Source: Acidimicrobiia bacterium (GTDB taxonomy: Bacteria; Actinomycetota; Acidimicrobiia; Spongiisociales; UBA11373). From it: 60,438 nt of DNA. The position numbers were made by a program, and so were the translations under genes. The stretch is taken from contig DATECY010000087.1 of assembly GCA_035286665.1 (NCBI GenBank), forward strand, positions 1-60,438. The letters run 5' to 3'. Below are positions 1,029-50,984 of this stretch, piece by piece (the stretch's first letter is position 1; every line of letters starts with the position of its first letter). Under the pieces are notes generated by a model. The model saw only the letters and a program-made list of their open reading frames with translations, had not been told where the DNA came from and did not search any database.

Positions 1029-1056
1029 GATTCGCAATGCGCGATTCGCAATGCGC
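1029..1056. repeat. heptamer tandem array: GATTCGC/AATGCGC alternating, 4 units (a 14-nt unit x2)
   Basis: Direct reading: gcGATTCGCAATGCGCGATTCGCAATGCGCga, between the ribF stop (1076) and the hydrolase start. Confidence 0.9.
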
Positions 1057-1075
1057 GACGAACAGCGGGCGACTC

Positions 1076-2002
1076 CTAGCCGAGCATGCTCCTGGCCACC
1101 TCGATGTCGCGCCCGATCTGCTCCACCAATTCCTCCACCCCGGCGAACTTCTGCTCGTCACGGATTCGGCCGATGAAGCGCACCCGCAGCTCGGATCCGT
1201 ACAGGTCCTCGTCGAAGCCGAACAGATGGGCCTCGACCATCTCGACGAGCCCGCCGAAGGTGGGGCGTACCCCGACGTTCGCCACCCCTGGGATCGACTC
1301 TTCGCCCGACCGACCACATCGGACCGCGTACACGCCCCGCCTCGGGACGGCGATCCCCTCGGCCGTGGCGACATTGGCCGTGGGGATCCCGATGGTCCTT
1401 CCCCGCCCGTCACCGGGCACCACGATCCCCCGCACCTCGTGCGGCCGAGCCAGCGCCACCGCGGCCCCGGCCACGTCGCCGGCAGCGATCATCTCCCTGA
1501 TCCGCGTGGACGACATCGGCTGGTCGCCACCGACGAGCGGCACGACCTCGGTCTCGAACTCGAGCCCGCTGCCCAGTTCCCGCAGCAACCCGACGTGGCC
1601 GGTGCGGTCCTTGCCGAAGCGGAAGTCTTCCCCCACGACCACGACGCCGGCGTGGAGGGTTCCGGCGAGGACACGGGTGACGAAGGTCGCCGGGCTCCAC
1701 GCTCGCAGCTCGCCGTCGAAGTCCACGACGGCGACCAGATCGATCCCGAGCCCATCGATCAACTCGAGGCGTTGCTCGATGGTGGTGAGCATGAGCGGGA
1801 CCCGGTCGGGGGCGACCACCGAGAGCGGGTGTGGATCGAAGGTGACGACACCCGACGCGATGCCCAGGTCTGCGGCCCGGCCGCGCAGTGCGGCGAGCAC
1901 GTGGCGGTGACCGACGTGGATCCCGTCGAACACACCGACGGCAAGGGCGTTGCGGGCCGCACCCGGATCCCACTCGGAGGGGTGACCGCGCAGGATCCTC
2001 AT
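1076..2002 (-). CDS. ribF: bifunctional riboflavin kinase / FAD synthetase
   Basis: 308 aa with GVFDGIHVGHRHVL nucleotidyltransferase motif and a C-terminal riboflavin kinase region. ATGA overlap with the truB stop. Confidence 0.93.
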   Translation of the reverse strand: MRILRGHPSEWDPGAARNALAVGVFDGIHVGHRHVLAALRGRAADLGIASGVVTFDPHPLSVVAPDRVPLMLTTIEQRLELIDGLGIDLVAVVDFDGELRAWSPATFVTRVLAGTLHAGVVVVGEDFRFGKDRTGHVGLLRELGSGLEFETEVVPLVGGDQPMSSTRIREMIAAGDVAGAAVALARPHEVRGIVVPGDGRGRTIGIPTANVATAEGIAVPRRGVYAVRCGRSGEESIPGVANVGVRPTFGGLVEMVEAHLFGFDEDLYGSELRVRFIGRIRDEQKFAGVEELVEQIGRDIEVARSMLG

Positions 2003-2871
2003 GACAACACCACCTCGGGGGCGGCGCGTCTGCCGTCCGATCGATACACGGCGAGCAGGTCGCCCGAGCTCCCGACCACTCGCACCGCACCGGCGGCGGT
2101 GATGCCCAGCGACGCCGCCGGGAACACCGCCCCGTGGCCGATGCCCTTGGCGGTCTCGTCGCTCACGACCGTCGCCGGAAGGTCGCCGAGGCCCTCGGAT
2201 GCCGAGATGAGCAGCGCCTCCCTCATCGAGGCGATCTCGTCGAACGAGTGTGCCCGGTCGACGGTGTGGACGCCGATCGCGGTGCGCCGCAGCGCAACGA
2301 GATGAGCCCTGCCGCCGAGCGCAGAAGCGATGTCGTCGGCGAGGGTGCGGATGTAGGTACCCGAGCCGCAGCGCACCCGGAACTCCACCTCCGGGTACGG
2401 TCCGGGGCTCACCTCGAGCACCTCGATGGCCTCGATCACGACCGCAACTGCCTGGCGCTCGATCTCGATCCCCTGGCGGGCCAGGTCGTACAGACGACGA
2501 CCTTCGACCCGCTTGGCAGAAACCATGGGTGGCACCTGCATGATCGTGCCGACGAATCTCCGGACCGCGGCGGCGACCTCCTCACGGCCGACCTCCATCG
2601 GTTCCCGGGAGAGAATCGCCCCATCGGCATCCAGCGTGTCGGTCGACACCCCGAAGAGCGCGGTCGCCTCGTAGACCTTGGTCCCCTCCTGAACGAAACG
2701 GAGCAGGCGGGTGGCCCGGCCCACCCCGAGCACGAGCAGGCCGGTGGCCATCGGGTCGAGTGTGCCGGCGTGGCCGATCCGGGACTGCGCCAGGAGGGTG
2801 CGGCTCTTCGCCACGACGTCGTGGGAGGTCCACCCCTTCGGCTTGTCGACGAGAAGAAAACCGTCAGCCAC
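1999..2871 (-). CDS. truB: tRNA pseudouridine-55 synthase
   Basis: N-terminus GFLLVDKPKGWTSHDVV and HAGTLDPMATGLLVLGVG catalytic Asp motif. Confidence 0.95.
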   Translation of the reverse strand: MADGFLLVDKPKGWTSHDVVAKSRTLLAQSRIGHAGTLDPMATGLLVLGVGRATRLLRFVQEGTKVYEATALFGVSTDTLDADGAILSREPMEVGREEVAAAVRRFVGTIMQVPPMVSAKRVEGRRLYDLARQGIEIERQAVAVVIEAIEVLEVSPGPYPEVEFRVRCGSGTYIRTLADDIASALGGRAHLVALRRTAIGVHTVDRAHSFDEIASMREALLISASEGLGDLPATVVSDETAKGIGHGAVFPAASLGITAAGAVRVVGSSGDLLAVYRSDGRRAAPEVVLS

Positions 2872-4175: not shown

Positions 4176-4459
4176 GGCTCCTCCAGATAGGACACACCCA
4201 TCTCGATCAGTTCCACGGTCGAGTCCTCCAGCATCATCCTCTGCAACCCGTCGACGATTTCATCGAGACGGCCGCGCTGTGGCGCAACCACGGCGACGCC
4301 GACGGTGGCACGCTGCCAGTCGTCCTGATGGTCGACCTCGGCCACCGAGAGGTCACGCTCTCGGAGCCGCCGCAGGACCGGCCGAAGCACAGAACGCTTC
4401 GCCTTGAGCGATCGCGCATCCGGAATGCGCAGTTCGAGCCGAAGAGCGGCGGCGTGCAT
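4172..4459 (-). CDS. DUF503 (YlxP-like) protein
   Basis: 95 aa; L.LRIPDARSLKAKRSVLRPVL is typical of DUF503. Canonical position between infB and rbfA. No SD upstream of the ATG. Confidence 0.8.
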   Translation of the reverse strand: MHAAALRLELRIPDARSLKAKRSVLRPVLRRLRERDLSVAEVDHQDDWQRATVGVAVVAPQRGRLDEIVDGLQRMMLEDSTVELIEMGVSYLEEP

Positions 4460-4465
4460 GAGGAA

Positions 4466-4471
4466 AGGGTA
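4466..4471 (-). promoter_or_regulatory. candidate -10 hexamer TACCCT (TANNNT), 6 nt upstream of the SD-less DUF503 ATG (possible leaderless internal promoter)
   Basis: Minus strand reads gaTACCCTttcctcATG. The same hexamer sits 7 nt upstream of the ffh ATG. Purely positional inference. Confidence 0.2.
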
Positions 4472-4479
4472 TCGGGAGG

Positions 4480-4521
4480 GTTAGGAGTTAGGAGTCAGGA
4501 GTTAGGAGTTAGGAGTTAGGA
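4480..4521. repeat. heptamer tandem array GTTAGGA x6 (third copy GTCAGGA)
   Basis: Direct reading of 4480-4521, inside the infB/DUF503 spacer. Confidence 0.95.
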
Positions 4522-4530
4522 GTGCTGACC

Positions 4531-4567
4531 TAATCCCTAATCCCTAATCCCTAATCCCTAACCCCTA
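4531..4567 (-). repeat. heptamer tandem array TAATCCC x4 + TAACCCC. On the transcribed (minus) strand this reads uaGGGGuuaGGGauuaGGGauuaGGGauuaGGG, a G-quadruplex-type motif starting in the infB stop codon
   Basis: Direct reading. There are five G3+ tracts with 3-4 nt loops on the minus strand, and the last copy overlaps the infB TAG (4565-4567). Confidence 0.9.
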
Positions 4568-6703
4568 CGTCCTCGCGACCTCGCGCACCTCATACGCCTC
4601 GATCACGTCACCGTCCTTGATGTCCCGGAACCCGTCGAGGCCGATACCGCACTCGAACCCGGAAGCGACCGAGCGCACGTCGTCCTTGAACCGGCGCAGG
4701 GACCCGATCGTGCCCTCGTGCACGACGATGCCGTCGCGGATGAGCCGCACACGAGAGCCGCGGGCGATCTCACCCTCGGTGACCATGCAACCCGCGATCA
4801 GGCCGAAGCGCGGCGCCCGGAAGGTGGCCCTGACTTCGGCACTCCCCAGCACCCGCTCCACCTCGGTCGGGGCGAGACGACCCACCAGCATCGCCTCGAT
4901 GTCGTCGAGCAACTCGTAGATGATCCGGTAGGTACGGATCTCGATCCCGGCTTCTTCGGCGGCCTTGCGCGTCTTGGCATCGGGCCGGACGTTGAATCCG
5001 AAGATCACCGCGTTGGTGGCGGTGGCGAGCAGCACGTCGTTCTCGGTGATGCCACCGACCGCAGTGTGGGCGATGGTGATGCTGCCGCCCTCGCGCCCGA
5101 TCTTGCCGACGGCCTCGCGGATCGCCTCGAGGGAACCGTGGGCGTCCGCCTTGACGATGAGCACCAACTCGGCATCGTCTGCGGTGCGCAGATCGTCGAG
5201 CAGTTGGGTGAGGCGTTCCGCTGCGCTGGGAACGGTGAGCTCCTCGTTTCGGATCGCCGTCACCCGGTCGGACGCCATCGAGCGGGCCGCGCGGTCGTCC
5301 TCGACGACCTCGAAGTAGTCGCCGGCGAGCGGGACGTCGTCCCAGCCCATGACCAGGACCGGCGAGCTCGGAGGCGCCTCGTCGATCTGGCTGCCGTTTT
5401 CGTCGAACATCGCCCGGACCCGACCCGCCACGGTCCCGGCCACGAGAGCATCGCCCTTGCGGAGGGTTCCCCGCTGGACGATCACCGTGCCGAGGGGGCC
5501 GCGGCCCTTCTCCAGCTGGCCCTCGATCACGGTCCCCGAAGCGGGCACGTCGGGGTTGGCGGAGAACTCCTCGAGCTCGGCGATGAGGTCGATGTACTCG
5601 AGCAGGTGGTCGATGCCGGCGCCGGTGCTCGCGGACACTTCGGCGCTCACGACGTCGCCGCCCAGTTGCTCGACGAGGAGACCGTATTCGGTGAGCTGGG
5701 CACGGACGTTGGCGGGGTTCGCCCCGGGGAGGTCCATCTTGTTGATCGCCACCACGATCGGAACCTTGGCGGCCTTGGCATGGTTGATCGCCTCGACGGT
5801 CTGGGGCATCACACCGTCGTCACCGGCCACGACCAGCACCACGATGTCGGTGACCTCGGCACCACGCGCCCGCAGAGTGGTGAAGGCCTCGTGGCCCGGC
5901 GTGTCGATGAAGGTGATCTTTCGGTCACCGACGCTCGTCTGGTAGGCGCCGATGTGCTGCGTGATCCCGCCCGCCTCCCCCGCAACGACGTTCGCATGGC
6001 GAATCTTGTCGAGGAGCAGCGTCTTTCCGTGGTCGACGTGACCCATCACCGTCACCACCGGTGGGCGCGGCTTCATGTCCCCGACCACGTCGTGATGGTC
6101 CTTCTTGGGGCGAACCATCGGGGCAGCCTCTTCGACCACCTCGGCTGCCGCGGATTCGACGGTCACGTCGTAGCCGAGTGACTCGCCGATCACCGTGAGC
6201 AACTCGACCGGGATCGGCTGGGTGGCGCCGGCCATCTTGCCGCGGGTGATCAACTCGCGCACCACGATTCCCACGGGACGGCGGGTCAGTTCGGAGAACT
6301 CGGCGACGGTGATGCCGGCGCGAACGGTGATCGGGCGCTTCGGTTGGGGCCCTTCGGTGCCGGGCATCCGACCCTTGCGTTTGCCCGCCTTGGCCGCATG
6401 CTGCTTCGAGTCACCATCGGCCCCAGACTCGTCATCCTCATCCTCCAACTCCTCCTCGGCCTCGGACTCGACCTCGACCTCGACGACCGCCCCCACGGCG
6501 GCGGCCGGCGTCTTGGTCGCGGCGGCGGGTGCGGCGGCGGCGGCCGCTGCCTTCTCCTCGTCGTAGGAGAGCCGCACGAGCGCGGCGTCGTCATCGGAGA
6601 GGCCCGAGGAGGCCGTCTTGACGTCGATCCCCAGCTCCTGGACACGCGCCAGCACGTCCTTGGATTCCTTGCCGAGGTCTCGGGCGAGTTCGTAGACGCG
6701 CAT
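4565..6703 (-). CDS. infB: translation initiation factor IF-2
   Basis: MRVYELARDLG IF2-N start preceded by GGAGGctgaccATG. GTPase motifs VMGHVDHGKTLLLD, DTPGHEAF, NKMD. The track ORF extends 15 codons further to GTG 6748. Confidence 0.96.
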   Translation of the reverse strand: MRVYELARDLGKESKDVLARVQELGIDVKTASSGLSDDDAALVRLSYDEEKAAAAAAAPAAATKTPAAAVGAVVEVEVESEAEEELEDEDDESGADGDSKQHAAKAGKRKGRMPGTEGPQPKRPITVRAGITVAEFSELTRRPVGIVVRELITRGKMAGATQPIPVELLTVIGESLGYDVTVESAAAEVVEEAAPMVRPKKDHHDVVGDMKPRPPVVTVMGHVDHGKTLLLDKIRHANVVAGEAGGITQHIGAYQTSVGDRKITFIDTPGHEAFTTLRARGAEVTDIVVLVVAGDDGVMPQTVEAINHAKAAKVPIVVAINKMDLPGANPANVRAQLTEYGLLVEQLGGDVVSAEVSASTGAGIDHLLEYIDLIAELEEFSANPDVPASGTVIEGQLEKGRGPLGTVIVQRGTLRKGDALVAGTVAGRVRAMFDENGSQIDEAPPSSPVLVMGWDDVPLAGDYFEVVEDDRAARSMASDRVTAIRNEELTVPSAAERLTQLLDDLRTADDAELVLIVKADAHGSLEAIREAVGKIGREGGSITIAHTAVGGITENDVLLATATNAVIFGFNVRPDAKTRKAAEEAGIEIRTYRIIYELLDDIEAMLVGRLAPTEVERVLGSAEVRATFRAPRFGLIAGCMVTEGEIARGSRVRLIRDGIVVHEGTIGSLRRFKDDVRSVASGFECGIGLDGFRDIKDGDVIEAYEVREVART

Positions 6704-40600: not shown

Positions 40601-40621
40601 AACGAGCAACCGGCAACGGCA
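40601..40621. repeat. degenerate heptamer array AACGAGC AACCGGC AACGGCA (GCAACSG register)
   Basis: Direct reading. GCAACGG recurs as a reverse complement at 46021-46041. Confidence 0.6.
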
Positions 40622-40629
40622 CCCTCCTG

Positions 40630-40661
40630 CGAATTACGAATTACGAATTACGAATTACGAA
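40630..40661. repeat. AT-rich heptamer tandem array CGAATTA x4 plus a partial copy
   Basis: Direct reading. 2 of 7 bases per unit are G/C, in a high-GC genome. Confidence 0.95.
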
Positions 40662-40703
40662 GATGGGCGATGGGCGATGGGCGATGGGCGATGGGCGATG
40701 GGA
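40662..40703. repeat. heptamer tandem array GATGGGC x5 plus a degenerate GATGGGA
   Basis: Direct reading. It ends 35 nt before the upp ATG. Confidence 0.95.
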
Positions 40704-40738
40704 AAGTACCCTTGTGCTCACCCTCACCCCGGAGCGGC

Positions 40739-41356
40739 ATGAACCTCACGGTGCTCGAACACCCCCTCGCCAAGCACTACCTGTCGGTGTTGCGTGACAA
40801 GTCGACGGAGCCGGAGGAGTTCCGCAGCGCGGCGCGACGCCTCACCTATTCGCTGGTGATGGAGGCGACCCGCGACCTGCCGCTCGAGACGATGACCATC
40901 GCCACCCCACTCGAGGAGACGACCGGGTATCAGACCTCGAAAGTGGTCGCCATCGCCGTTCTCAGGGCCGGCCTCGGGCTGCTCGATGCCGTCATCGACC
41001 TGATCCCGTCGGTCAAGGTGGGGTTTGCCGGCGTGCAGCGCAACGAGGAGACCGCCGAGCCCATCGAGTACTACTTCAAGCCGCCGGACCTCGCCGAGGC
41101 GACGGTGCTCATCCTCGAACCGATGCTCGCCACCGGCGGATCCCTCTCGTGGGCGGTGACCAAGGCGAAGGAGTCGGGCGCCCGGGCGATCACCTGCCTC
41201 TGCGTGGTCGTGGCACCAGCGGGCGTCGCTCGCATGGAGAGGGAACATCCCGACGTCCGCATCGTCGCCGCCTCGCTCGACCGCGACCTGAGCGACCACT
41301 TCTACATCCGGCCCGGTCTCGGCGACATGGGTGATCGCCTCTTCGGGACGACATGA
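40739..41356 (+). CDS. upp: uracil phosphoribosyltransferase
   Basis: MNLTVLEHPLAKHYLSVLRDKST start and LEPMLATGGS PRPP motif; GGAG upstream. The track ORF start (40670) lies inside the repeat array. Confidence 0.94.
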   Translation: MNLTVLEHPLAKHYLSVLRDKSTEPEEFRSAARRLTYSLVMEATRDLPLETMTIATPLEETTGYQTSKVVAIAVLRAGLGLLDAVIDLIPSVKVGFAGVQRNEETAEPIEYYFKPPDLAEATVLILEPMLATGGSLSWAVTKAKESGARAITCLCVVVAPAGVARMEREHPDVRIVAASLDRDLSDHFYIRPGLGDMGDRLFGTT

Positions 41357-41628
41357 CCGACCTCGACGATCGCATCGCCGAGGTCCTCGACCGACTGGAG
41401 CCGGGCGAAGTCGTGACCTATGGCGAGGTCGCAGCCATGGCCGGACGGCCGGAGGCGCCCCGGGCGGTCGGCAGGTTCCTCGCCGAGACGACCGGCCACC
41501 CCTGGTGGCGGGTGGTCAACTCCGCCGGCCGGCTCGCCCCGGGGTCAGAGGTCGAACAGGCTCGACGGCTACGCGCCGAGGGGATCGCGGTGGAGGGCAA
41601 CCGAGTCGTCGGGATGAAGCGCCGATGA
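41353..41628 (+). CDS. alkyltransferase-like (ATL) protein / MGMT DNA-binding domain protein without the acceptor cysteine
   Basis: VVTYGEVAAMAG...PRAVG...HPWWRVVNSAG. The PCHRV acceptor motif reads PWWRV. ATGA overlaps on both sides. Confidence 0.8.
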   Translation: MTDLDDRIAEVLDRLEPGEVVTYGEVAAMAGRPEAPRAVGRFLAETTGHPWWRVVNSAGRLAPGSEVEQARRLRAEGIAVEGNRVVGMKRR

Positions 41629-42929
41629 ACTTCGTCGAGTTGATCGAGCGCAAGCGTGACGGCGGGGCGCTGAGCGCGGACGAGATCGGCTGGCTGATCG
41701 CCGAGTACACCGCCGATCGCATCCCCAACTATCAGATGTCGGCGATGCTCATGGCGGTGCTCCTCGTCGGGCTCGACCCTGACGAACTGGCCGCGTGGAC
41801 CGAGGCGATGCTGCACTCGGGCGAGATCCTGGACTTCTCGGACATCGGCGCTCCCGTCATCGACAAGCACTCCACCGGCGGGGTCGGCGACAAGGTCAGC
41901 ATTCCGCTCGCCCCGATGGTCGCCGCCTGCGGGATCGCCGTCCCGATGATCTCCGGCCGAGGGCTGGGCCACACCGGCGGCACCCTCGACAAGCTGGAGA
42001 CCATCCCCGGCTTCCGCACCGATCTCACCTCGACCGAATTCCACACCCTGCTCGGACGACACGGCCTGGTGCTCGCAGGGGCATCCGCCACGATCGCACC
42101 GGCCGATCGCAAGATCTACGCCCTGCGCGACGCCACCGGCACGGTCCCCTCGATCCCGCTGATCGCATCCTCGATCATGTCGAAGAAGCTTGCCGAAGGG
42201 ATCGACGCCCTCGTCCTCGACGTGAAGGTGGGGCGGGGCGCCTTCATGAAGGATCTCGACAGCGCCCGCACGCTGGCGAAGACGATGGTGGGCATCGGCA
42301 AGGCCCACGGCACCACCACGGTTGCCTACCTGACCGACATGAACCAACCGCTCGGCCGGGAGATCGGCAACGCATCGGAGATCGCCGAGTCCGTCGCCGT
42401 GCTCCGCGGCGAGGGCCCCGACGACCTGATCGAGGTGATCTATGCCCTCGGGGCCGAGATGCTCGTACTCGGTGGTCAGGCCGACGACACCGCGATCGCC
42501 CGGACGCTCCTCGCGGAATCGATCTCCTCGGGGGCGGCGCTCGCCAAGTTCGTGGAGGTCGCCATCGCCCAGGGAGGCGACCCTGCGGTGATAGAGGACC
42601 CGGGTCGCCTCGTCGCAGCCCGGAAGGAACAGGTGCTCACCGCCGCGGCGGCGGGTTTCGTCACCAGGTGCGATGCCCTCGACCTGGGCGTCGCCGCCAC
42701 CCGCCTCGGCGCCGGGCGGGAGACCATGGAGGACACCATCGACCCGGGGGCCGGTATCACCGTGGGGGTCAAGATCGGGGACAGGGTCGACGCCGGCGAC
42801 GCCCTGGCAGTCCTTCGCTTCAACGACGACGCCCATCTCGGCGAGGCGATCGCACTCGCCGGCCGGGCATTCGAGATCGGCGACACCAGCGCCGACGCGC
42901 CACCCCTGGTCCACGAGGAGGTTCGATGA
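41625..42929 (+). CDS. deoA: thymidine (pyrimidine-nucleoside) phosphorylase
   Basis: MNFVELIERKRDGGALSADEIGWLI start, DKHSTGGVGDK, SGRGLGHTGGTLDKLE. Confidence 0.95.
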   Translation: MNFVELIERKRDGGALSADEIGWLIAEYTADRIPNYQMSAMLMAVLLVGLDPDELAAWTEAMLHSGEILDFSDIGAPVIDKHSTGGVGDKVSIPLAPMVAACGIAVPMISGRGLGHTGGTLDKLETIPGFRTDLTSTEFHTLLGRHGLVLAGASATIAPADRKIYALRDATGTVPSIPLIASSIMSKKLAEGIDALVLDVKVGRGAFMKDLDSARTLAKTMVGIGKAHGTTTVAYLTDMNQPLGREIGNASEIAESVAVLRGEGPDDLIEVIYALGAEMLVLGGQADDTAIARTLLAESISSGAALAKFVEVAIAQGGDPAVIEDPGRLVAARKEQVLTAAAAGFVTRCDALDLGVAATRLGAGRETMEDTIDPGAGITVGVKIGDRVDAGDALAVLRFNDDAHLGEAIALAGRAFEIGDTSADAPPLVHEEVR

Positions 42930-43753
42930 GTTACGAAGCGATCGAGCAGGCCCGGGCCGCCATCGCCGAGGCGACGGGACGGCCCCGTCATCGACTGGCG
43001 GTCGTGCTCGGCTCGGGGCTCAGCGACTACGCCGGCGCCCTCCCCGGAGTCCGCGGCATCCCCTACGACGACATCCCCGGCTTTCCGGTGCCCCGGGTCG
43101 AGGGCCATGCCGGGTCGCTCTACTCCGTGGACCTCGACGGTCCCGTCATGATCCTCGCCGGTCGGGTCCACACCTTCGAGGGATGGGATCTCGGCGATGT
43201 CGTGTTCACGGTTCGTACCGCGGTGCTGTCCGGATGCACGACGGTCGTGCTCACCAACGCCGCCGGCGGATGCGGCGATGGGTTGGCGCCAGGAGACCTC
43301 GTGCTGATCAAGGATCACCTCAACCTGACGGCGCGCAATCCCCTCGTCGGCGCCAACGACGATCGCCTCGGGCCCCGTTTCCCCGACATGTCGACGGTGT
43401 ACCCGTCCGACCTGCGCGCCCGAGCACGGGCGATCGGCGATCGGGTCGGCGTTTCACTCGGCGAAGGGGTGTATGCCTGGTTCCTCGGGCCTTCGTACGA
43501 GACCCCCGCCGAGGTACAGATGGCCCGGCGCCTCGGTGCCGACCTGGTCGGCATGTCGACGGTGCCCGAAGCGATCGCGGCCCGGCACATGGGCGCCAAG
43601 GTCCTCGGGATCTCCCTGGTCACCAACCTGGCGGCGGGAATCTCCCCTACGCCGCTGAGCCACGCCGAGGTGACGGCGACGGCGAATGCCGCACAGGAGC
43701 GGTTCGCGACCCTGCTCGACGCGTTGCTCCCGGAGCTGGCGAGCAGCGAGTAG
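42926..43753 (+). CDS. punA: purine nucleoside phosphorylase (trimeric PNP/PunA type)
   Basis: VVLGSGL, VEGHAGSLY, GRVHTFEG, GPSYETPAE, VGMSTVPE motifs. Confidence 0.93.
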   Translation: MSYEAIEQARAAIAEATGRPRHRLAVVLGSGLSDYAGALPGVRGIPYDDIPGFPVPRVEGHAGSLYSVDLDGPVMILAGRVHTFEGWDLGDVVFTVRTAVLSGCTTVVLTNAAGGCGDGLAPGDLVLIKDHLNLTARNPLVGANDDRLGPRFPDMSTVYPSDLRARARAIGDRVGVSLGEGVYAWFLGPSYETPAEVQMARRLGADLVGMSTVPEAIAARHMGAKVLGISLVTNLAAGISPTPLSHAEVTATANAAQERFATLLDALLPELASSE

Positions 43754-43772
43754 CAGGCGCAGGTCGCAGGTC
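43753..43772. repeat. heptamer array GCAGGC GCAGGTC GCAGGTC, beginning at the last base of the punA TAG
   Basis: Direct reading. Confidence 0.75.
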
Positions 43773-43786
43773 TTCTTGCAGGAGGC

Positions 43787-43808
43787 CGGAGACGGGAGAC
43801 GGGAGCCG
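43787..43808. repeat. heptamer array CGGAGAC GGGAGAC GGGAGCC
   Basis: Direct reading. Confidence 0.75.
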
Positions 43809-43879
43809 CTGCTGGTCCCCACCGACCGGCGACCCACTCGCACCTTCTAACATCGCCCCGCACGCGCCAAAGGAGTGAC

Positions 43880-44656
43880 ATGAAGATCGCGGTCTGCGTC
43901 AAGCAGATTCCGGATCCCGCCACGCCGTACCAGTTGGACCCGAACACCCACCTGGTGGTCCGGCCGGACGAGCAGATACTCGACGACACCGACCGTTACG
44001 GCATCGAAGTCGGACTGCAACTCGCCGCAGCCACCAATGGCACGGTGGTCCTCGTGTCGATGAGTCCTGCCGGAAACCTTCAGGGCATCCGCCAGGCTCT
44101 AGCGATGGGGGCCGACAAGGCGGTCGTGGTCAACGACTCCGCCCTTCGCGGGTCGGGTGCGCTCGTCACCGCCCGGGTCCTTGCCGCGGCCATCGCCCGT
44201 GAGGAGGTCGACCTGGTGATCACCGGCACGGAGTCCACCGACGGCTACGCCGGCGTCGTCCCCCAGCAGATCGCCGAGTTCCTCGGATTGCCCGCCCTCA
44301 CCTTTGCCCGCAAGGTAGAACTCGCCGACGGCGCACTCCGCATAGAGAGGCAGACGGCGACCGGGTACGACGTGGTCACGGCTCCTCTCCCCGCGCTGGT
44401 GAGCGTGACGTCGGGTGCCGTCGAACCGCGCTACCCGACCTTCAAGGGGATCATGCAGGCGAAGCAGAAGCCCGTCGACCAACCCACCTGCGCCGAACTC
44501 GGCCTCGACCCGGCAATGGTCGGATTGCCGGGGTCCGGCCAGACCATCACCGCCGTGCGCCCTAGCGCAGCTCGGGCGGCCGGCACCAAGATCCAAGACG
44601 AAGGCGAGGCCCATCTCGAAATCGTCAAGCTGCTCGAACAGGCGAAGGTGATCTGA
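43880..44656 (+). CDS. etfB: electron transfer flavoprotein beta subunit
   Basis: [12 protein letters not shown] start, 258 aa; AAGGAG SD. Confidence 0.93.
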
Positions 44657-44657
44657 C

Positions 44658-45611
44658 ATGACGACCTGGGTCTTCTCAGAAGAAGTCGACGGCGGCCCTG
44701 CGCCAATATCGCTCGAGCTGTTGACCAAAGGCCGATCACTGGGCGGCGACGTCGCGGCGTTCTACGTCGGCAGGGGCAGTGATGCCGCCTGGGCTGCCCT
44801 CGGCGCGCACGGTGCGACGGTGGTGCATCACCTCGACGCCGGCGACGCCCTCCCCGCTGCGGCGGCGACGGCGGCTCTGGCCGGACTCGTCGCAGAGGGC
44901 GACCTCGTGCTGTTCGGCCTCACCCCCACCGACCGTGACGTCGCCGGGCGGCTGAGCGCACGGATCGGACGCCCAGTGCTCTCCAACGCCGTCGACGTCG
45001 TCGTCGGTCCGGACGGCACGGTGACGGTCCACAACGAGATCTTCGGAGGCACCACGGTGATCGAGACGGCCTTCACCGGCCCGGGGCCCAAACTCGTGGT
45101 GGCCCGCCCCAAGTCGTTCGCGGCGCAAGCCGACGCCGCCGGAGCGCCCGATGTCGTCACGGTCACGGTGCCCGACACCGGTCACGCCGGGTCGGCAACG
45201 GTCGTCTCCCGTCACGACGAAGAGTCACAGGGTCCCAAACTGACCGAGGCCGACGTGATCGTGAGCGGGGGTCGCGGCATGGGCTCTGCGGAGAACTTCC
45301 ACATGGTCGAGGAGATCGCAGGACACCTCGGCGCCGCCGTGGGGGCGACGAGAGCGGTGGTCGACGCCGGTTGGGTGCCGTACTCGATGCAGGTCGGCCA
45401 GACGGGAAAGACCGTCAAGCCCAAGGTCTACATAGCGTGCGGGATCAGCGGAGCGATGCAGCACCTCGTCGGGATGAAGGACTCGGGCGTGATCATCGCC
45501 GTCAACAAGGACGAGGAGGCGCCGATCTTCGGCGTCGCCGATCTCGGAGTCGTCGGCGACGTGCACAAGGTGCTGCCGAAGCTCCTCGAGGCGCTCGCCG
45601 CCAGGGGCTAG
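44658..45611 (+). CDS. etfA: electron transfer flavoprotein alpha subunit
   Basis: C-terminal FAD motif [17 protein letters not shown]...[13 protein letters not shown]. Confidence 0.93.
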
Positions 45612-45868
45612 TGCCGGCCCATCGAATCGATGTGGTTGCGGTGCCCGGTGATCATCTCGCGCGGCACCGGTTCCGGCAGGAGCAGGCCGACGAGGATCGC
45701 CGTCACCGCGAGTCCGGCGACGATCCACCACACGCGCACCGCCCCGAGGATCGAGGCAGCCGCGGCAAGGTACACGGCGAGCGCGGTGACGCCCCAGCCG
45801 ATCTTCACGAGCACCCGGTATCCGGTGGTGACCTTCCAGTCGGGCGCGGGGGGCGTATGCACGGTCAT
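45608..45868 (-). CDS. hypothetical small membrane protein (2 TM helices)
   Basis: [64 protein letters not shown]. The stop overlaps the etfA stop convergently. Confidence 0.5.
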
Positions 45869-45898
45869 ACCAGCGCTATCGGAGCAGGCCGTCGGGAA

Positions 45899-45927
45899 GT
45901 GAAGGGGAATGCCGCACACCCCTTCAC
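45899..45927. other. perfect 9-bp hairpin GTGAAGGGG-(11 nt)-CCCCTTCAC
   Basis: Inverted repeat read directly, in the spacer upstream of the small membrane protein gene. Confidence 0.5.
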
Positions 45928-45964
45928 CAGCCTGCAGCCACCCCCAAGGAGCGGTTCAACCAGC

Positions 45965-45985
45965 CATCGCTCTTCGCTCATCGCC
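45965..45985. repeat. heptamer array CATCGCT CTTCGCT CATCGCC (reverse complement register GATGAGC GAAGAGC GATG)
   Basis: Direct reading. Confidence 0.75.
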
Positions 45986-45993
45986 TCTCCGTA

Positions 45994-46041
45994 GAAGGCC
46001 GAAAGCGAAGGTCGACCATCCCGTTACCCGTTGCCCGTCAG
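45994..46041. repeat. two adjoining degenerate heptamer arrays: GAAGGCC GAAAGC GAAGGTC GACCATC, then CCGTTAC CCGTTGC CCGTCAG
   Basis: Direct reading. Confidence 0.7.
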
Positions 46042-46107
46042 ACTCCCGGAAAAGGCCGAAGGACGGGAGGCGCCGGCACGCTCCCTGCTGCCGCCGGCAC
46101 GCCGCCT

Positions 46108-46494
46108 CTACTCCGGGTTCAGCCGGAACCCATGGGGGATCAGCTCTTCGAGCGTGTGGGTGATCGGACCGGCGGGGCGGTCGACGATCACACGGTCCAC
46201 CCGAAACTCGACCATCAGCTGTCTGCAGTTGCCGCAGGGATAGCCGGGTTCGGTGGCGTCGATGCACGCCACGACCACGGTGTCCAGCTTGCGAGCCCCC
46301 GAGGAGACGGCACGGGCGATCGCGCTTGCCTCGGCACACATTCCCGAGCCGTAGGCACTGTTCTCCACGTTGGCGCCGGTGTAGTGGTTTCCCTCGGAAT
46401 CGACGACAACGGCACCGACCCGATAGTGGGAGAAGGGTGCGTAGGCGTGCTCGGCGGCCAAGTGCGCCTCGGCGACGAGCTCCTCGGTGGTCAT
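46108..46494 (-). CDS. cdd: cytidine deaminase
   Basis: 128 aa with the CAEASAI and PCGNCRQ zinc motifs. ATGA overlap with the ftsY stop. The 281-aa track ORF is over-extended. Confidence 0.92.
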   Translation of the reverse strand: MTTEELVAEAHLAAEHAYAPFSHYRVGAVVVDSEGNHYTGANVENSAYGSGMCAEASAIARAVSSGARKLDTVVVACIDATEPGYPCGNCRQLMVEFRVDRVIVDRPAGPITHTLEELIPHGFRLNPE

Positions 46495-47474
46495 GAGCCC
46501 TCCAGAAGCGAGTCCACGAAGACCTCCGGAGAGAAGTGAAGCAGGTCGTCGGCGGATTCGCCGACTCCGATCAGCTTGACCGGAAGCCCCAACTCCTGCT
46601 CGACCGCCACCGCCATCCCTCCCCGAGCCGTGCCGTCGAGCTTGGAGAGCACGACACCGGTGACGCCCACCGCCGCGGTGAACGCACGGGCCTGAACGAT
46701 GCCGTTCTGACCACTGGTGCCGTCGAGCACCAGCAGCACCTCGTCGACTCGACCCGGCCCGCGCGACAACACCCGCACCACCTTGCCCAGCTCCTCCATC
46801 AGGTTGCGCTTGGAATGGAGCCGGCCGGCGGTGTCGACGATGACGACGTCGCGACCTCTGGCTCGCGCCGCCGACACCGCGTCGAAGGCGACCGATGCCG
46901 GGTCGGCGCCCTCCTGCCCGGCGATCACGTCGATGCCGAGACGGGTCCCCCACTCCTGGATCTGCTCGGCCGCCGCGGCCCTGAAGGTATCCGCCGCTCC
47001 GATCAACACCCCGCGGCCCTCGCGCTGCAGCATGGCGGCGATCTTGGCGATGCTCGTCGTCTTGCCCGACCCATTGACTCCGACGACCACGACGATGGCC
47101 GGCGGACTGCCCAGGTGCAACGAACGGTCCCGATCCCCAAACGCGGCGATCAGCTCACGGCGCAGGATCTCCCTGGCCTCAATCGGTCCGGCCGGCCGGG
47201 AGGCACGCACCCGTTCGACGACGGCGGTGACGGTGGCCACCCCCATGTCCACCGAGATGAGGGCGTCCTCGAGATCCGACCAGAAGGCATCGTCGATGCC
47301 GCGTCCAAGAACGGATGAGATCCGACCGGTGAGGGTCGATCTGGTGACCCGGGGCGGAGTGGGAGCGAGTACGCCGACCGGGCGGGTGGCGGCCCGACGA
47401 CGACGCAGGACGTATGCGACGCCGACCACGAGGCCGAGGGAGGCGACGAGCAAGCCGATCAGGACGGCGGTCAC
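46491..47474 (-). CDS. ftsY: signal recognition particle receptor FtsY with N-terminal TM anchor
   Basis: GTG start gives VTAVLIGLLVASLGLVVGVAYVL. Contains GVNGSGKTTSIAKIA and DTAGRL. GTGA overlap with the smc stop. Confidence 0.93.
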   Translation of the reverse strand: MTAVLIGLLVASLGLVVGVAYVLRRRRAATRPVGVLAPTPPRVTRSTLTGRISSVLGRGIDDAFWSDLEDALISVDMGVATVTAVVERVRASRPAGPIEAREILRRELIAAFGDRDRSLHLGSPPAIVVVVGVNGSGKTTSIAKIAAMLQREGRGVLIGAADTFRAAAAEQIQEWGTRLGIDVIAGQEGADPASVAFDAVSAARARGRDVVIVDTAGRLHSKRNLMEELGKVVRVLSRGPGRVDEVLLVLDGTSGQNGIVQARAFTAAVGVTGVVLSKLDGTARGGMAVAVEQELGLPVKLIGVGESADDLLHFSPEVFVDSLLEGS

Positions 47475-50400
47475 ACCCGGCTCAGGCGTTTGGCGAGCAC
47501 CCGCGAGGATTCGCCCGGTTCCATGGTCACACCGTAGAGAACGTCCGCCGCCTCCATGGTCTGCTGCTGGTGGGTCACGACCACCAGCTGCGAGGTTCCG
47601 CGCAACGTCCCGATCAGCCTGATGAAACGGCGCAGATTGGCGTCGTCGAGCGCCGCTTCGACCTCGTCGAGCACGTAGAACGGGCTGGGGCGACACCGGA
47701 ACACCGCGAAGAGGAACGCCAACGCGGCGAGCGATCGCTCTCCGCCCGACAACAAGGCGAGCCGCCCAACCTTCTTGCCCATCGGCTGGGCATGGATGTC
47801 GACCCCGGTGGAGAGCACGTCGTCGTGATCGGTCAACGTGAGCCGACCGATGCCGCCCGGGAACAAGACCGCGAAATTCTCGGAGAACTTGCCGGCGATG
47901 TCCTCGAATGCATCCCTGAACAGGCGTCCAATCTCATCGTCGAGCGCTCTGATGACCTTGCGTATCTCCGCGCGAGATGCCTCGAGGTCGGCGAGTTGGC
48001 CCTCCATGAAGGTGACCTGCTCGGCCAATTCGGTGTACTCGGCGGCCGCCAGCGGGTTGACCGGCCCCAATCGCTTGAGCGCTGCCGCCAGCGAGTCGAG
48101 ATGGGCTGCGGGCTCGATGCCCTCGGGCACCTCTGGGCGAGGGGCGCCGAGAGCTTCTTCCTCGGGCGCGTCGACGTCACGTCGCAGCCCTTCGAGGACT
48201 GCCTCCTCGCGCACCGTCAACTCGGCGATCTCGACCGCCATCGCCGAGAGCGACTCGCGTGCAGCTTCAATCTGGTTTCCGAGCGCCTCACGACGAGAGC
48301 GTGCCTCGTCGAGGCGAGCACCGGCATCGCCTGCCTGCGCTCGCAAGGCGCGCTGGCGTTCACGAAGGGTACCGATGTGGGTCCGCACGATCTCCACGGC
48401 GCGTCGTGCCCGGGCCTCGGTGATCTCCAGACGGGCGACGCCGTCGCGATCGACGCGGGGCCCGTCCTCCGACAGCAACACCTCGATCTCGGCGAGCCGG
48501 CGCTCGATGAGGACACGACGCTCGCTCGCCGCGGCGAGCGTGGCGGTGGCCTCTTCACGACGCCGCCGCGCTTCGTCGCGCCCGGACGCGACCTCTTGAC
48601 GGCGACGGCTCAGGTCGTCCCACGCCGTCTGACGGGCCGCTTCCTCGCCATCGAGTTGGTCGAGCCGCTCGCGCAGCCCGGAGAGCCGTTCTCCCCGGCT
48701 TGCACCCGCCGCGGCGAGCGCTCGAGCGCGGGCGTCGAGCCGGTCGAGTTCGCCCTGGTGCTCCTGACGGGATCGGGCGAGCAGGCCGAGCGTCTCTTCA
48801 ATGGCAGCCTTGCGGCGGTCCACAACGGCGAACGAGGCCGCTGCCTGCTCCAGTGCCGCCACAGATGCGTCACGGGAACGGTTCGCAGTGGTGCGCCGAC
48901 TGATGGCACGGGCGGTCTCGGTCGAAGCACGCTCGGCGAGGACGCGAGCAGCCTCGATTGCCACCGGCCCGGTGCCCTCCGGATACCCGGCAACGACGCC
49001 CACGGCGGTGATGAGGTCACCCTCCGGCGTCACGACCCGAACGTCGGGATGGCCGGCGACGATCGCCCGACCCTGGGACCACCCTTCGACGAGGACCACG
49101 TCTCCGAGAAGCGACGCCGCCAACGATCCGTCGGCGCCCCTCCCCAGGCGATCTACGAGCGCTTCGGCGCCGCTGGCAAAGGCAACCGCCCGAGCCGGCA
49201 CCGAGCCATCGCCCACGGCGGAGACAAAGGCCACTCCGCCACGTCCCTGTGATTTGATGGCAGAAGCCGCGGCCGCCACGCCACCCCGGTCGCGGGTGAC
49301 GAAAGCCTCGGCCCATGGCCCGAGTGCGGCGGCCACCGCTGGCGCGAGATGTGCCGGCGCGTCGAGGGCAGCGGCGATCGTTCCGACGACTCCCTCGATC
49401 GCCGCCGCCATGTCCCGGGTCTCGGCGTCGGCAAGCCCTGCACGCGCCGCCTCGAGTGCCTCGACGCGGGCGCCGGCGGCGGCGGACGCGGTCTCGGCGC
49501 GTCGGTGTGCTTCATCCGCGGCCAGTGCCTCGGCACGATCCCGATCGGCAGCGGCGGCTGCCCTGTCGCGAGCAGCCATCGCCTTGGCGGCCCCTGCAAC
49601 CGCTTCGGCGAGCTCGACCTGAAGCCGTTGCGCGTCCCTGCTCTCTTCTGCGATGAGGGTGGCGACCGCCCCGCGCCGCCGGATCAGATCCGAGCGCTCG
49701 CGTTCATCGCGGCTTGCGGCGGCGTCGAGGGCGGCGAGATCCCCACGCAGAGAGGCGACCATGCCTTCAGTGGGGAGCCGGTCGGCGTCGGCCAGGGATC
49801 GCTCCTCGTCGTCGAGCGATCTCAGAGCGATTTCGGCGCGCTCCGCCGCTTCGGTGGCCGCCGACTCCTCGGTGACGGTCCTTCCGAGTCGCACCGCGAG
49901 ATCATCGTGTTCCTTCGTGAGATCGTGCCTCCGCTCGTCCACGTCGAGAACGCTCCGTTCCAAGCTGGAGCGGCGCTCGCGCGCAACGAGGGCGATGCTG
50001 TGGAGGCGCTCTGCCGCCGTCTCGAGTCGCGCCGCGGCGGCCGTGTCGCGGTCGAGTGCTTCTCCGGTCTCACCCGCCGCTGCCTGGAGGCCGGCCAGAG
50101 CCGCCGAGATCGACTCTCGTTCGGCCAGCCATGTCTCGAGAGAACCTTTCGATCCTGCCTGATCTCGGTGCAGTTGATCGAGGCGAGCGCGCACCGTCCG
50201 CAGTCGTTCGCCACCCACCCAGAGCCGCACCGCCCGCCATTCGGCACGCACCGCATCGTGACGAGCCGCGGCGCTTGCCTGCCGACGCAGCGGTCGCAGA
50301 CGGCGCTCCTGGTCGGCATGCATTTCCTTGAGGCGTTCGAGGTCCACCGCGGTCGCCTCGAGGCGGCGGATGGCGCGATCCCGCCTAGCGCGATGCTTGA

Positions 50401-50902
50401 CGACGCCTGCCGCCTCTTCGATGACGGCTCTGTGCTCCTCGGGCCCGGCGTTGAGGACCCCGTCCACACGCCCCTGGCCGACGATGACGTGCTGGTGACG
50501 CCCGACGCCGCTGTCGCTCAGTAGCTCCTGGATGTCGAGCAGTCGGCACGGGGTTCCATTGATCTCATACTCGCTGGTCCCATCCCGCAACAGCCTCCTG
50601 GTGATGGTGATGTCCGCCATGTCCAAGGCCAGTTCGCCCGCGGTGTTTTCGAACGTGAGCGACACCTCGGCGCGCCCTAGGGCGGGGCGCACTGCGGTGC
50701 CGGCGAAGATCACGTCCTCCATGCGCTCGGTGCGCAGCGAGCTGGTGGCCTGGGTACCCATGACCCACGCGATCGCGTCGACGAGATTCGATTTGCCCGA
50801 GCCGTTGGGGCCGACGACGACCGTCACCCCCGGCTCGCACTCGATCCTCGTCCTGTCGGCGAAGGACTTGAAGCCGACCAGCGAAAGCGTCTTGAGATGC
50901 AC
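47471..50902 (-). CDS. smc: chromosome segregation protein SMC
   Basis: 1143 aa. N-terminal Walker A VVGPNGSGKSNLVDAI, long coiled coils, hinge, C-terminal LSGGERSLAALAFLFA and YVLDEVEAALD. Confidence 0.96.
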   Translation of the reverse strand: MHLKTLSLVGFKSFADRTRIECEPGVTVVVGPNGSGKSNLVDAIAWVMGTQATSSLRTERMEDVIFAGTAVRPALGRAEVSLTFENTAGELALDMADITITRRLLRDGTSEYEINGTPCRLLDIQELLSDSGVGRHQHVIVGQGRVDGVLNAGPEEHRAVIEEAAGVVKHRARRDRAIRRLEATAVDLERLKEMHADQERRLRPLRRQASAAARHDAVRAEWRAVRLWVGGERLRTVRARLDQLHRDQAGSKGSLETWLAERESISAALAGLQAAAGETGEALDRDTAAAARLETAAERLHSIALVARERRSSLERSVLDVDERRHDLTKEHDDLAVRLGRTVTEESAATEAAERAEIALRSLDDEERSLADADRLPTEGMVASLRGDLAALDAAASRDERERSDLIRRRGAVATLIAEESRDAQRLQVELAEAVAGAAKAMAARDRAAAAADRDRAEALAADEAHRRAETASAAAGARVEALEAARAGLADAETRDMAAAIEGVVGTIAAALDAPAHLAPAVAAALGPWAEAFVTRDRGGVAAAASAIKSQGRGGVAFVSAVGDGSVPARAVAFASGAEALVDRLGRGADGSLAASLLGDVVLVEGWSQGRAIVAGHPDVRVVTPEGDLITAVGVVAGYPEGTGPVAIEAARVLAERASTETARAISRRTTANRSRDASVAALEQAAASFAVVDRRKAAIEETLGLLARSRQEHQGELDRLDARARALAAAGASRGERLSGLRERLDQLDGEEAARQTAWDDLSRRRQEVASGRDEARRRREEATATLAAASERRVLIERRLAEIEVLLSEDGPRVDRDGVARLEITEARARRAVEIVRTHIGTLRERQRALRAQAGDAGARLDEARSRREALGNQIEAARESLSAMAVEIAELTVREEAVLEGLRRDVDAPEEEALGAPRPEVPEGIEPAAHLDSLAAALKRLGPVNPLAAAEYTELAEQVTFMEGQLADLEASRAEIRKVIRALDDEIGRLFRDAFEDIAGKFSENFAVLFPGGIGRLTLTDHDDVLSTGVDIHAQPMGKKVGRLALLSGGERSLAALAFLFAVFRCRPSPFYVLDEVEAALDDANLRRFIRLIGTLRGTSQLVVVTHQQQTMEAADVLYGVTMEPGESSRVLAKRLSRV

Positions 50903-50942
50903 GGGTACTCTCAGGCTATCAGACCGGAATCACAGGGGTGTA

Positions 50943-50984
50943 GTTAGGAGAGCTGTGAGCTGTGAGCTGTGAGCTGTGAGCTCA
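50943..50984. repeat. GTTAGGA x1 followed by the heptamer array GAGCTGT x4 + GAGCTCA. The last copy contains the stop codon of the lipoprotein gene
   Basis: Direct reading, between the smc start (50902) and the lipoprotein stop (50982-50984). Confidence 0.95.

Follow-up and report, generated by a model that had tools for sequence, protein, structure and literature searches.

Variable heptanucleotide tandem-repeat arrays occupy the intergenic spacers of a housekeeping region in an Acidimicrobiia bacterium

Tandem arrays of 7-nt units are described here from the intergenic spacers of a 60,438-nt stretch of DNA from an uncultured Acidimicrobiia bacterium (Actinomycetota; assembly GCA_035286665.1, contig DATECY010000087.1), referred to below as the window. 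The STRR repeats of heterocystous cyanobacteria (Calothrix, Nostoc and Anabaena), credited to Mazel et al. 1990, reportedly consist of several tandem 7-nt units per genome spread over many intergenic loci. The arrays of the window share these properties but belong to an Acidimicrobiia genome of 68% GC, with ±7-nt polymorphism and wholesale spacer replacement documented. They are not STRRs in the strict sense, since the host is not a cyanobacterium and the units differ from STRR1–3. Rehm et al. 2015 described G-quadruplex-forming heptamers, GGGAATC in Xanthomonas and GGGGA(C/T)T in Nostoc, with no demonstrated function, and three heptanucleotides in Calothrix PCC 7601 are mentioned in the same paper (PMC4692102). 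The Xanthomonas and Nostoc repeats occupy the same spacers in related species and show extensive variation in length and sequence (PMC4692102). MacGregor 2015 described TAACTGA intergenic direct repeats in Beggiatoaceae, Cyanobacteria and Bacteroidetes (PMC4679880), and Geobacter metallireducens carries GGGACCG in four and MTYCTGA in five tandem copies, annotated as putative regulatory elements without proof (PMC2700814).

As in Xanthomonas and Nostoc, the arrays described here are intergenic, heptamers are the only over-represented long simple sequence repeat (SSR), arrays number approximately 4–6 units, inverted pairs occur occasionally and the neighbours are ordinary metabolic or housekeeping genes; the host is high in GC, as is Xanthomonas, and 13/28 arrays have G3N4 units. 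The two sets differ in that no unit dominates here and about half of the arrays lack G-tracts, that arrays in divergent spacers are common here and under-represented there, and that the G-rich strand of upstream arrays is the sense strand here and the non-coding strand in Rehm et al. (PMC4692102). The TAACTGA repeats are likewise heptamer direct repeats of 2–6 or more copies that lie between genes, beside housekeeping genes, with their unit present in distant lineages; however, Beggiatoa has one unit, mostly a few nt upstream of start codons, whereas here there are many units and many arrays abut stop codons. The Geobacter elements are multi-copy and consist of 4–5 tandem heptamers in a fairly GC-rich genome, but form conserved families of fixed copy number that occur also within genes, whereas the present arrays are variable and excluded from genes.

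The arrays show the four features of the broad class of intergenic heptanucleotide SSRs, namely a tandem 7-nt unit, over-representation, a bias to non-coding DNA and instability in unit steps, and they belong to the same general class as the cyanobacterial STRRs and the Xanthomonas and Nostoc heptamers. The reading preferred here, with a probability of roughly 0.55, is that they are hypermutable heptanucleotide microsatellites made by slippage and tolerated in unconstrained intergenic DNA. An earlier note on this DNA, made from the sequence alone, had compared the arrays aptly with the STRR type but overstated their novelty in a high-GC genome, as an intergenic heptamer SSR excess is already known for "many bacterial genomes", including high-GC Xanthomonas (PMC4692102). 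A full-text literature search gave, among the papers listed, no report of heptamer arrays for Acidimicrobiia, and the arrays extend a known repeat class (STRR, GGGNATC, TAACTGA) to a new host lineage without being a new kind of element.

The window is a housekeeping region that includes ribF, truB, rbfA, DUF503, infB, nusA, rpsB, tsf, a sigma factor, ffh, upp, etfBA, cdd, ftsY and smc, with infB lying in the row nusA-infB-DUF503-rbfA-truB-ribF and Pfam matches supporting ribF, IF-2 (infB) and the neighbourhood of the sigma-factor gene and rpsB. On a self-trained codon-usage gene map, 92.5% of the window lies in genes and 7.5% is non-coding, and its GC content is 0.68. Tandem Repeats Finder (TRF) was run on the whole window together with a scan for perfect runs of at least 2.5 copies. 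Positions without a contig label refer to the window, and L-numbers denote comparison contigs or loci. All 14 arrays claimed earlier were found in place by TRF and sequence inspection: TRF reports 11 as period 7 and a twelfth (1025–1058) as a 14-mer of two related heptamers, and the remaining two (40601–40621 and 45994–46014) are degenerate arrays below the TRF threshold that are visible in the sequence. The arrays, the hairpin that two of them form and the promoter-like hexamer at ffh are as follows.

1025–1058: 14-nt unit GCGCGATTCGCAAT, 2.4 copies, an alternation of the heptamers GATTCGC and AATGCGC (TRF); within the 81-nt spacer from the ribF stop (1076) to the next gene start (994)
4465–4580, minus strand: long imperfect hairpin made from the next two arrays and filling the infB-DUF503 intercistronic spacer
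4480–4523: GTTAGGA, 6.3 copies, one arm of the inverted array pair (TRF)
4529–4567: CCTAATC, 5.6 copies (GGGATTA on the minus strand), second arm of the inverted pair (TRF); the infB stop codon (4565–4567) falls within its last, degenerate copy
19739–19762: ATTGGCA (= GCAATTG), 3.4 copies, with degenerate flanking copies at 19738–19765 (TRF); between the sigma-factor gene stop (19875) and the rpsB start (19579)
40510–40515, minus strand: TACCCT, resembling a -10 element and placed 7 nt ahead of the ffh ATG (leaderless type)
40555–40584: CGATGCG (GATGCGC), 4.3 copies, divergent ffh-upp spacer (TRF)
40601–40621: degenerate AACGAGC AACCGGC AACGGCA (GCAACGG type), ffh-upp spacer (sequence)
40630–40661: CGAATTA, 4.6 copies, ffh-upp spacer (TRF)
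40662–40702: GATGGGC, 5.9 copies, a G3N4 unit, ffh-upp spacer (TRF)
43753–43772: GCAGGTC, 3.0 copies, beginning at the final base of the PNP_UDP_1 gene stop codon (TRF)
43788–43805: GGAGACG, 2.6 copies (TRF)
45965–45984: CATCGCT, 2.9 copies, 84% matches (TRF)
45994–46014: degenerate GAAGGCC GAAAGC GAAGGTC (sequence)
46020–46038: CCCGTTA/CCCGTTG, 2.7 copies (GYAACGG on the minus strand) (TRF)
50950–50982: GAGCTGT, 4.7 copies (TRF), between the stop of gene 50982–51722 (1-nt overlap) and the smc start (50902)

The genes adjoining these arrays are ffh, upp, infB, DUF503, rpsB, the sigma-factor gene, etfB, cdd, smc and ribF. The intergenic, period-7-specific family that had been claimed is real. 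Eight perfect arrays of period 7 are present in the window, six of them with at least 3.5 copies, against 0–1 at periods 6 and 8–12; periods 4 and 5 account for 22 and 6 short runs, nearly all within coding DNA. All 8 perfect period-7 arrays fall in the non-coding 7.5% (P ~1e-9). Exactly the seven spacers that had been named show autocorrelation peaks at lag 7 (0.36–0.57), coding DNA showing lag 3 only, and the lower GC content ascribed to the arrays is seen in a mean unit GC of 0.58 vs 0.68 for the window. The same specificity extends to 80 metagenome loci encoding relatives of ETF-alpha at 58–82% identity (603 kb), in which 26 period-7 arrays of at least three perfect copies were found vs 0–2 at periods 5, 6 and 8–11, while a control set of approximately 1.05 Mb of loci from other phyla contained a single period-7 array. 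Across the clade, 48/50 arrays lie between genes, where intergenic DNA makes up 7.4% of the sequence, and spacers of at least 75 nt bear arrays in 7/17 cases in the window and 7/9 in the related contig L096. A scan of the whole window with Rfam 15 gave 0 matches at the gathering threshold.

Comparison of strains was performed with metagenome contigs that encode proteins identical to those of the window, taken from ENA (MEGAHIT and SPAdes assemblies), JGI and Logan, and matching the window at 97.8–99.9% identity in DNA other than the spacers. Differences between strains amount to whole 7-nt units, consistent with the slippage suspected in the earlier note, and the copy-number heterogeneity for which a check had been proposed is limited to the longer perfect arrays. 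Nearly all strain indels within arrays are multiples of 7 (±7, 14, 21 or 28 nt) between flanks that are 99–99.9% identical: +21 in GATGCGC, ±7 in CGAATTA, -14 to +7 in GATGGGC, -7 in GGGATTA, -7 in GCCTGCA, +14 in GAGCTGT (two extra units, L087; contig L088 ends inside this array) and +7 in GGAGACG (one extra unit, in the 97.8%-identity strain L005). Arrays with at least four perfect copies are polymorphic between strains of >99% flank identity, and degenerate arrays of at most three copies are invariant in 4–10 contigs (43753, 45965–46041, 19739). In this latter group, the GCAGGTC array at 43753–43772 is unchanged in 10 contigs apart from single-nucleotide polymorphisms (SNPs), the arrays at 45965–45984, 45994–46014 and 46020–46038 are identical across 7 contigs, and the 295-nt sigma factor-rpsB spacer is unchanged in three strain contigs. 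The unit-sized steps and the length-dependent instability together are the classical behaviour of slippage-prone microsatellites.

In the ffh-upp spacer, between flanks of >99% identity, the GATGCGC copy number is 4 or 7 and a variant AATGCGC unit occurs at differing positions, CGAATTA ranges from 3.6 to approximately 6.5 copies and GATGGGC from 3.6 to 6.5 copies, and the degenerate array at 40601–40621 is invariant; the latter is probably a decaying array, the orthologous spacer of L096 containing CGGGCAA (= GCAACGG) in 4.3 copies. CGAATTA and CGAATTG units are mixed in L004, and in the shorter spacer of L005 the unit passes from GATGGGC through GATGAGC to CATGAGC along a single array. In L001 a 190-nt core of the spacer is replaced by unrelated sequence with heptamers of its own (GCCTGCA-like units and four copies of AAGCTGC) between flanks 99.5–99.8% identical to the window, and the independent JGI contig L191 carries exactly this allele. 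A further candidate for a rearranged allele, L193, proved to be of the normal type, its ffh gene having been called longer.

The infB-DUF503 spacer is found in lengths of 98, 105, 146, 153 and 156 nt. Its GGGATTA arm lacks one unit (-7 nt) in L176, L178 and L180, and its GTTAGGA arm (TCCTAAC) is expanded to at least 11–18 copies in L179 and L183. In L174, L177 and L182 the spacer instead contains another hairpin cassette, (GCCTGCA)n ... (TGCARGC)n, with 7 nt of length variation of its own. The flanking genes of L177 (1922–2100, aligned to window 4440–4585) are 99.5–99.8% identical to the window, yet its spacer allele is of the type found in L174, from a lineage with 94–98% identity. SNPs of the L174 type adjoin this allele across the initial ~25 nt of DUF503, so that it looks like an import through homologous recombination; these polymorphisms indicate a putative short-tract exchange between co-existing lineages. 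The expanded arrays of L179 (1–460) and L183 (1–160), (AACTCCT)11–18, are joined to left flanks unrelated to infB, and in L179 (AACTCCT)11 is joined to the end of a lon-like gene (~50% GC, estimate) and a hairpin. These joins are either assembly chimeras across arrays common to different organisms or real rearrangements.

In relatives with 55–82% protein identity, arrays are present in the same spacers with different units. The species of L095 and L096, with 77% ETF-alpha identity, is denser in arrays than the window: within 21 kb, L096 contains 10 perfect arrays of at least three copies and 14 period-7 arrays by TRF, with up to 11–14 copies, and arrays make up 31% of its intergenic nucleotides. 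Gene order is conserved, and arrays of the window, L096, L104, L159 and L163 lie in the ffh-upp, PNP-etfB, post-etfA and smc-upstream spacers, with units that are unrelated between the orthologous spacers. The spacer position of the arrays persists while the unit sequence turns over. Downstream of ribF, L174, approximately 6% divergent on this side, has other heptamers (GTTCTTC, GCCCTTC and ATCGCTC). The closest GTDB genomes by Ffh, the Acidimicrobiia metagenome-assembled genomes (MAGs) L007–L014 with 66–76% identity, have almost no arrays in the stretches fetched, which indicates that the dense array state is restricted to a sub-clade.

Arrays lie in co-directional, divergent and convergent spacers, and of the 50 arrays across the clade 14 abut or overlap a stop codon (≤10 nt) and none is <9 nt from a start codon. 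A TANNNT hexamer starts 12–16 nt before the start codon in 8/27 window genes that follow spacers of at least 40 nt, which suggests that leaderless-type promoters, with a putative -35-independent core, are common in this organism. Such sites, often TACCCT, lie at 4466–4471 (minus strand), 40510–40515 (minus strand) and 40707–40712 (plus strand), and also precede the genes whose end or start is at 24081, 26974, 28175, 28226, 33677 and 50902. Array ends are found close upstream of these hexamers: the 4480–4523 array stops 8 nt from the -10-like AGGGTA at 4466–4471 (TACCCT on the minus strand) on the DUF503 side, the GATGGGC array stops 4 nt before the -10-like TACCCT at 40707–40712 upstream of upp, and an array in L096 stops directly before TATCAT of etfB. 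Conservation between spacer alleles likewise stops at TANNNT hexamers in the infB-DUF503 and ffh-upp spacers, in the latter including the point just beyond 40510–40515. Bounded in this way, the arrays take up the interval between a stop codon and the core promoter that follows, DNA without evident constraint. Two functional ideas related to this placement were dropped. A role in supplying stops in three frames after genes holds, among the cases inspected by eye, for the infB hairpin arms only, and fails on the sense strand for GAGCTGT, GCAGGTC, GGAGACG and the array at 1029; a role in supplying -35-like TTGC hexamers is contradicted by the wrong orientation at upp, etfB (L096) and DUF503.

What is directly observed is the period specificity, the intergenic restriction, the length-dependent 7-nt steps, the spread and turnover of units, the exchange of alleles and one cassette at two loci. 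In the preferred reading, replication slippage or unequal exchange, working in a 7-nt register, would add and remove whole units, and point-mutated units would spread within an array, giving drift of the unit and neighbouring sub-arrays with related units. Whole array cassettes would occasionally be copied into another spacer, and homologous recombination would shuffle spacer alleles among strains. As 7 is not a multiple of 3, so that changes of copy number shift the frame in genes, and as core promoters and ribosome-binding sites are constrained, arrays would survive only in free DNA, where they would persist and fill the distance from the stop codon to the next -10 element. They would be mostly neutral, and the hairpins (RNA 3'-end or intercistronic structures) and G-tracts would be secondary by-products that may sometimes be used. 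An origin of the heptamer excess in polymerase slippage has been proposed earlier, as summarised in PMC4692102.

Several observations weigh against slippage acting alone. It does not account for a step of 7 nt over 4, 5 or 8, and the only proposal for this step met in the literature, as cited in PMC4692102, relates it to how much DNA the polymerase holds at its active site. Identical units (GCAACGG, GTAACGG, GCAATTG, TTCGCAA, AGCGGAC and AGGGATT) recur at non-orthologous loci and in different species. A G3/C3 tract is present in 13/28 arrays of the window and L096 vs 5.2 ± 1.8 expected, with the G3N4 units GGGCAAC, GGGTAAC, GGGCGAT, GGGATTA, GGGAGAC and GGGCGAA, and in 13/15 cases it is the sense strand of the nearest gene that is G-rich (p = 0.007; some arrays are paired and not fully independent). 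Inverted pairs, being reverse complements within 1 mismatch, make up 5/27 same-spacer pairs vs 37/1351 in the background (Fisher p = 0.001). Finally, the ffh-upp spacer (window 40503–40738) is exactly 236 nt long in three alleles (L001, L003 and L191 compared), namely the window type, an allele with changes of +21, +7 and -28 nt, and the unrelated cassette, other alleles having 215, 229 and 263 nt; this may reflect a length constraint or coincidence. Taken together, the repertoire, G-tract, strand, inverted-pair and spacer-length points hint at selection or a sequence-biased generator atop slippage.

Selection for structure is the substance of the first alternative, which is possible but unlikely: slippage would supply raw material for selected nucleic-acid modules, either long hairpins of the REP/BIME type that stabilise or terminate RNA between cistrons or at 3' ends, or sense-strand G-quadruplexes of G3N4 arrays that tune transcription or translation. 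The infB-DUF503 spacer provides its clearest case, as the minus-strand RNA of 4465–4580 folds at -55.9 kcal/mol (z = -5.4; 0/200 shuffles fold as well) and the fold fills the spacer exactly, the GTTAGGA and CCTAATC units being complementary except at 2/7 positions per unit. At 2937–3097 of L096, perfectly complementary arrays lie against both stop codons of convergent genes. The enrichment of inverted pairs and of sense-biased G3 tracts points the same way, and units of the GGGNATC/GGGGAYT class, from Xanthomonas and Nostoc, form G-quadruplexes in vitro (PMC4692102). GATGGGC (5.9 copies) and CCCTAAT (5.6 copies) are the only G3/C3 arrays of the window with at least four units, the other arrays lacking G-tracts or having fewer units. 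However, most arrays are neither paired nor contain G3, and an extragenic imperfect hairpin palindrome is seen in a minority (window 4465–4580, four or five pairs in relatives and the L174 cassette). In near-identical strains the hairpin spacer is swapped for an unrelated cassette or altered in arm length, and inverted pairs lie also in divergent promoter spacers, another complementary pair in L096 among them, where a terminator makes no sense. A scan of 40000–52000 for consensus sigma-70 promoters and U-tract terminators found none at arrays, and Rehm et al. found no regulatory effect for the homologous class (PMC4692102).

Beside the GCAATTG array, at 19703–19733, stands a perfect 12-bp GC-rich stem-loop, GACCCGGCAGCG-TTTC-CGCTGCCGGGTC, which is terminator-like and has no U-tract.

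A second alternative, distinctly unlikely, replaces ordinary slippage with a dedicated, sequence-biased generator of 7-nt repeats that would build and rebuild most of the free intergenic DNA, its products serving as exchangeable modules, some acting as insulators or terminators and others upstream of promoters. Candidate generators would be a polymerase, a primase or a repair enzyme that advances in fixed steps of 7 nt, or else a system mobilising hairpin cassettes. The products, G3N4 tracts on the sense strand and hairpins of inverted arrays, would be located downstream of stop codons and ahead of promoters that have a -10 element only and are often of the leaderless type. Were this so, the recurrence of units across phyla and viral contigs would reflect a shared mechanism or horizontal spread. 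Such recurrence was seen in IMG/VR, where exact (GGGCAAC)3 is present in 9 contigs and (AACTCCT)3 in 30 (L199–L237; 36–68% GC). These 39 contigs (380 kb) contain 74 period-7 arrays vs 0–6 for other periods, and several carry many heptamer arrays. Some of these putative viral contigs have up to 10 different heptamer arrays in 14 kb (e.g. L228:1600–11800, L231:2500–7500), and their units include GGGGATT (the Nostoc unit), CAACTGA (1 base from TAACTGA of Beggiatoa) and CTGGTGG (the core of E. coli Chi).

That the arrays are platforms for a protein reading 7-bp heptads, with copy number setting occupancy, is improbable. Candidate readers would be an omega-like ribbon-helix-helix (RHH) protein, as in pSM19035, a nucleoid-associated protein, or a cold-shock domain or other single-strand or RNA binder that covers 7 nt. 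The geometry is suggestive, as contiguous direct and inverted heptads just upstream of core promoters resemble the omega/parS arrangement of pSM19035 (PMC9499535), and the unit repertoire is limited, with the same units recurring across species. GCAATTG also forms an array in L096, and GYAACGG, the unit at 46020–46038, forms arrays at at least three L096 loci. The units share a weak consensus: of the motif RATKNGC read earlier, expectation-maximisation (EM) alignment over rotations and strands recovers AYKSGCA, with 4.95 bits of information over all arrays vs 3.85 ± 0.16 in shuffles, and the signal is weak once only unique units are used (4.32 vs 3.98 ± 0.15; 3/200 shuffles reach 4.32). This weakening shows the stronger signal to be the re-use of a few identical units (GCAACGG, GTAACGG, GCAATTG and TTCGCAA), leaving a consensus that is weak but real. 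Against a heptad reader stand at least 39 distinct units, orthologous spacers with unrelated units in related species and strains, a GCRA motif with no strand bias relative to genes (8 vs 6), and ordinary housekeeping neighbours; no candidate binding protein was identified. Omega recognises one consensus (WATCACW) and is a cognate protein of its sites, whereas here there are dozens of units with no conservation at a locus, and operators of the omega/ParG type were rejected given the 39 distinct units and weak common consensus. Protein binding, which had been offered as a possibility, is not supported as a sequence-specific role at individual loci, given the unrelated units of orthologous spacers, which differ even between strains.

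Dispersal by transposition, the arrays being parts or footprints of small non-autonomous mobile elements such as hairpin cassettes of the MITE or REP type, is given a similarly small chance. The ffh-upp cassette of L001 (also in L191) and the infB-DUF503 cassette of L174 (also in L177 and L182), both (GCCTGCA)n ... (TGCARGC)n with a complementary right arm, share 35 nt at 97% identity, two irregular units included. This similarity is homology and not convergence. Identical units lie at several loci of one genome, GCAACGG at four in L096, and the units recur as arrays in the 39 IMG/VR contigs. With that one case excepted, homology between non-orthologous spacers is confined to arrays, an all-against-all BLAST of 479 spacers having shown no other similarity beyond the arrays themselves. 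No target-site duplications, conserved element ends or transposase/RAYT gene were seen, the ±7-nt changes and within-array unit gradients show growth in place, and the L177 allele with its L174-type SNPs looks recombined in rather than transposed. Intergenic hairpins after stops or between cistrons, strain variation and one cassette at two loci recall REP and BIME elements, but the arms here are tandem heptamers and not a conserved 20–40-nt palindrome, and no conserved family sequence was seen. Assignment to a REP/BIME or MITE family was rejected, since in place of a conserved dispersed sequence with defined ends the spacer BLAST gave array-level similarity and one shared cassette. The structure-module, heptad-reader and transposition readings are not mutually exclusive with slippage.

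A comparison with phase variation was also considered. The 7-bp promoter repeats of hmw1A/hmw2A in Haemophilus influenzae and TTTTGAT in the Vibrio ctxAB promoter, given among others in PMC8262952, are similar in being promoter-upstream units that change copy number by slippage and could alter expression stepwise, but each of those is one contingency locus beside a surface or virulence gene of a host-adapted pathogen, whereas the present arrays are genome-wide and lie beside ffh, infB, smc, etf and rpsB. With housekeeping genes as neighbours, contingency loci were rejected.

An assembly or sequencing artefact, or chance low-complexity sequence, is refuted: contigs often break in or beside arrays (L087, L088, L010, L163, L183) and at least one, L179, looks chimeric across an array, but the same arrays with the same flanks recur in >10 independent assemblies made by different assemblers and held in different archives (ENA MEGAHIT/SPAdes, JGI, Logan) and are therefore not assembly artefacts, the unusual L001 allele is reproduced exactly by L191, and chance is excluded by the period, control-phyla, relatives and intergenic statistics.

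Further observations concern the window and a relative outside the arrays. Three called spacers, at 25069–25399, 35630–36312 and 51723–52463, have lag-3 periodicity and no heptamers and probably contain genes missed by the simple gene finder, an example being the open reading frame 51641–52564 (minus strand) with a high GC content at third codon positions (0.81). Beside rimM, at 37422–37862 (minus strand), the precomputed annotation gives a Pfam match to CesT, a type III secretion chaperone, which is unexpected there. Two sets of in-frame coding repeats are unrelated to the heptamers, namely a period-9 repeat, GCCGGGGCC, of 6.3 copies at 831–890 within the coding gene 2–994, and period-6/18/3 repeats at 6442–6544 in the N-terminal part of infB. 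In 6.3 kb of L008 (Acidimicrobiia MAG JBFFFX010000161.1), three perfect period-9 arrays and one of period 6 are present, with 0 of period 7.

The question of why bacteria favour 7-nt repeats dates from the description of the STRRs and was raised again in a 2007 survey, as cited in PMC4692102. The lineage described here is unusually dense in such repeats, which account for up to approximately 30% of intergenic bases and are present in the majority of spacers that reach 75 nt. Arrays also damage short-read assemblies, as contigs end in or beside them (L087, L088, L183), and can create chimeric contigs, as the L179 join suggests, which is relevant to binning and strain tracking of Acidimicrobiia. 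Public metagenomes already hold a natural population series in which ±7-nt alleles, unit drift and cassette replacement can be read directly, so that the rates, length thresholds and strand biases of heptamer arrays are measurable without a cultured strain.

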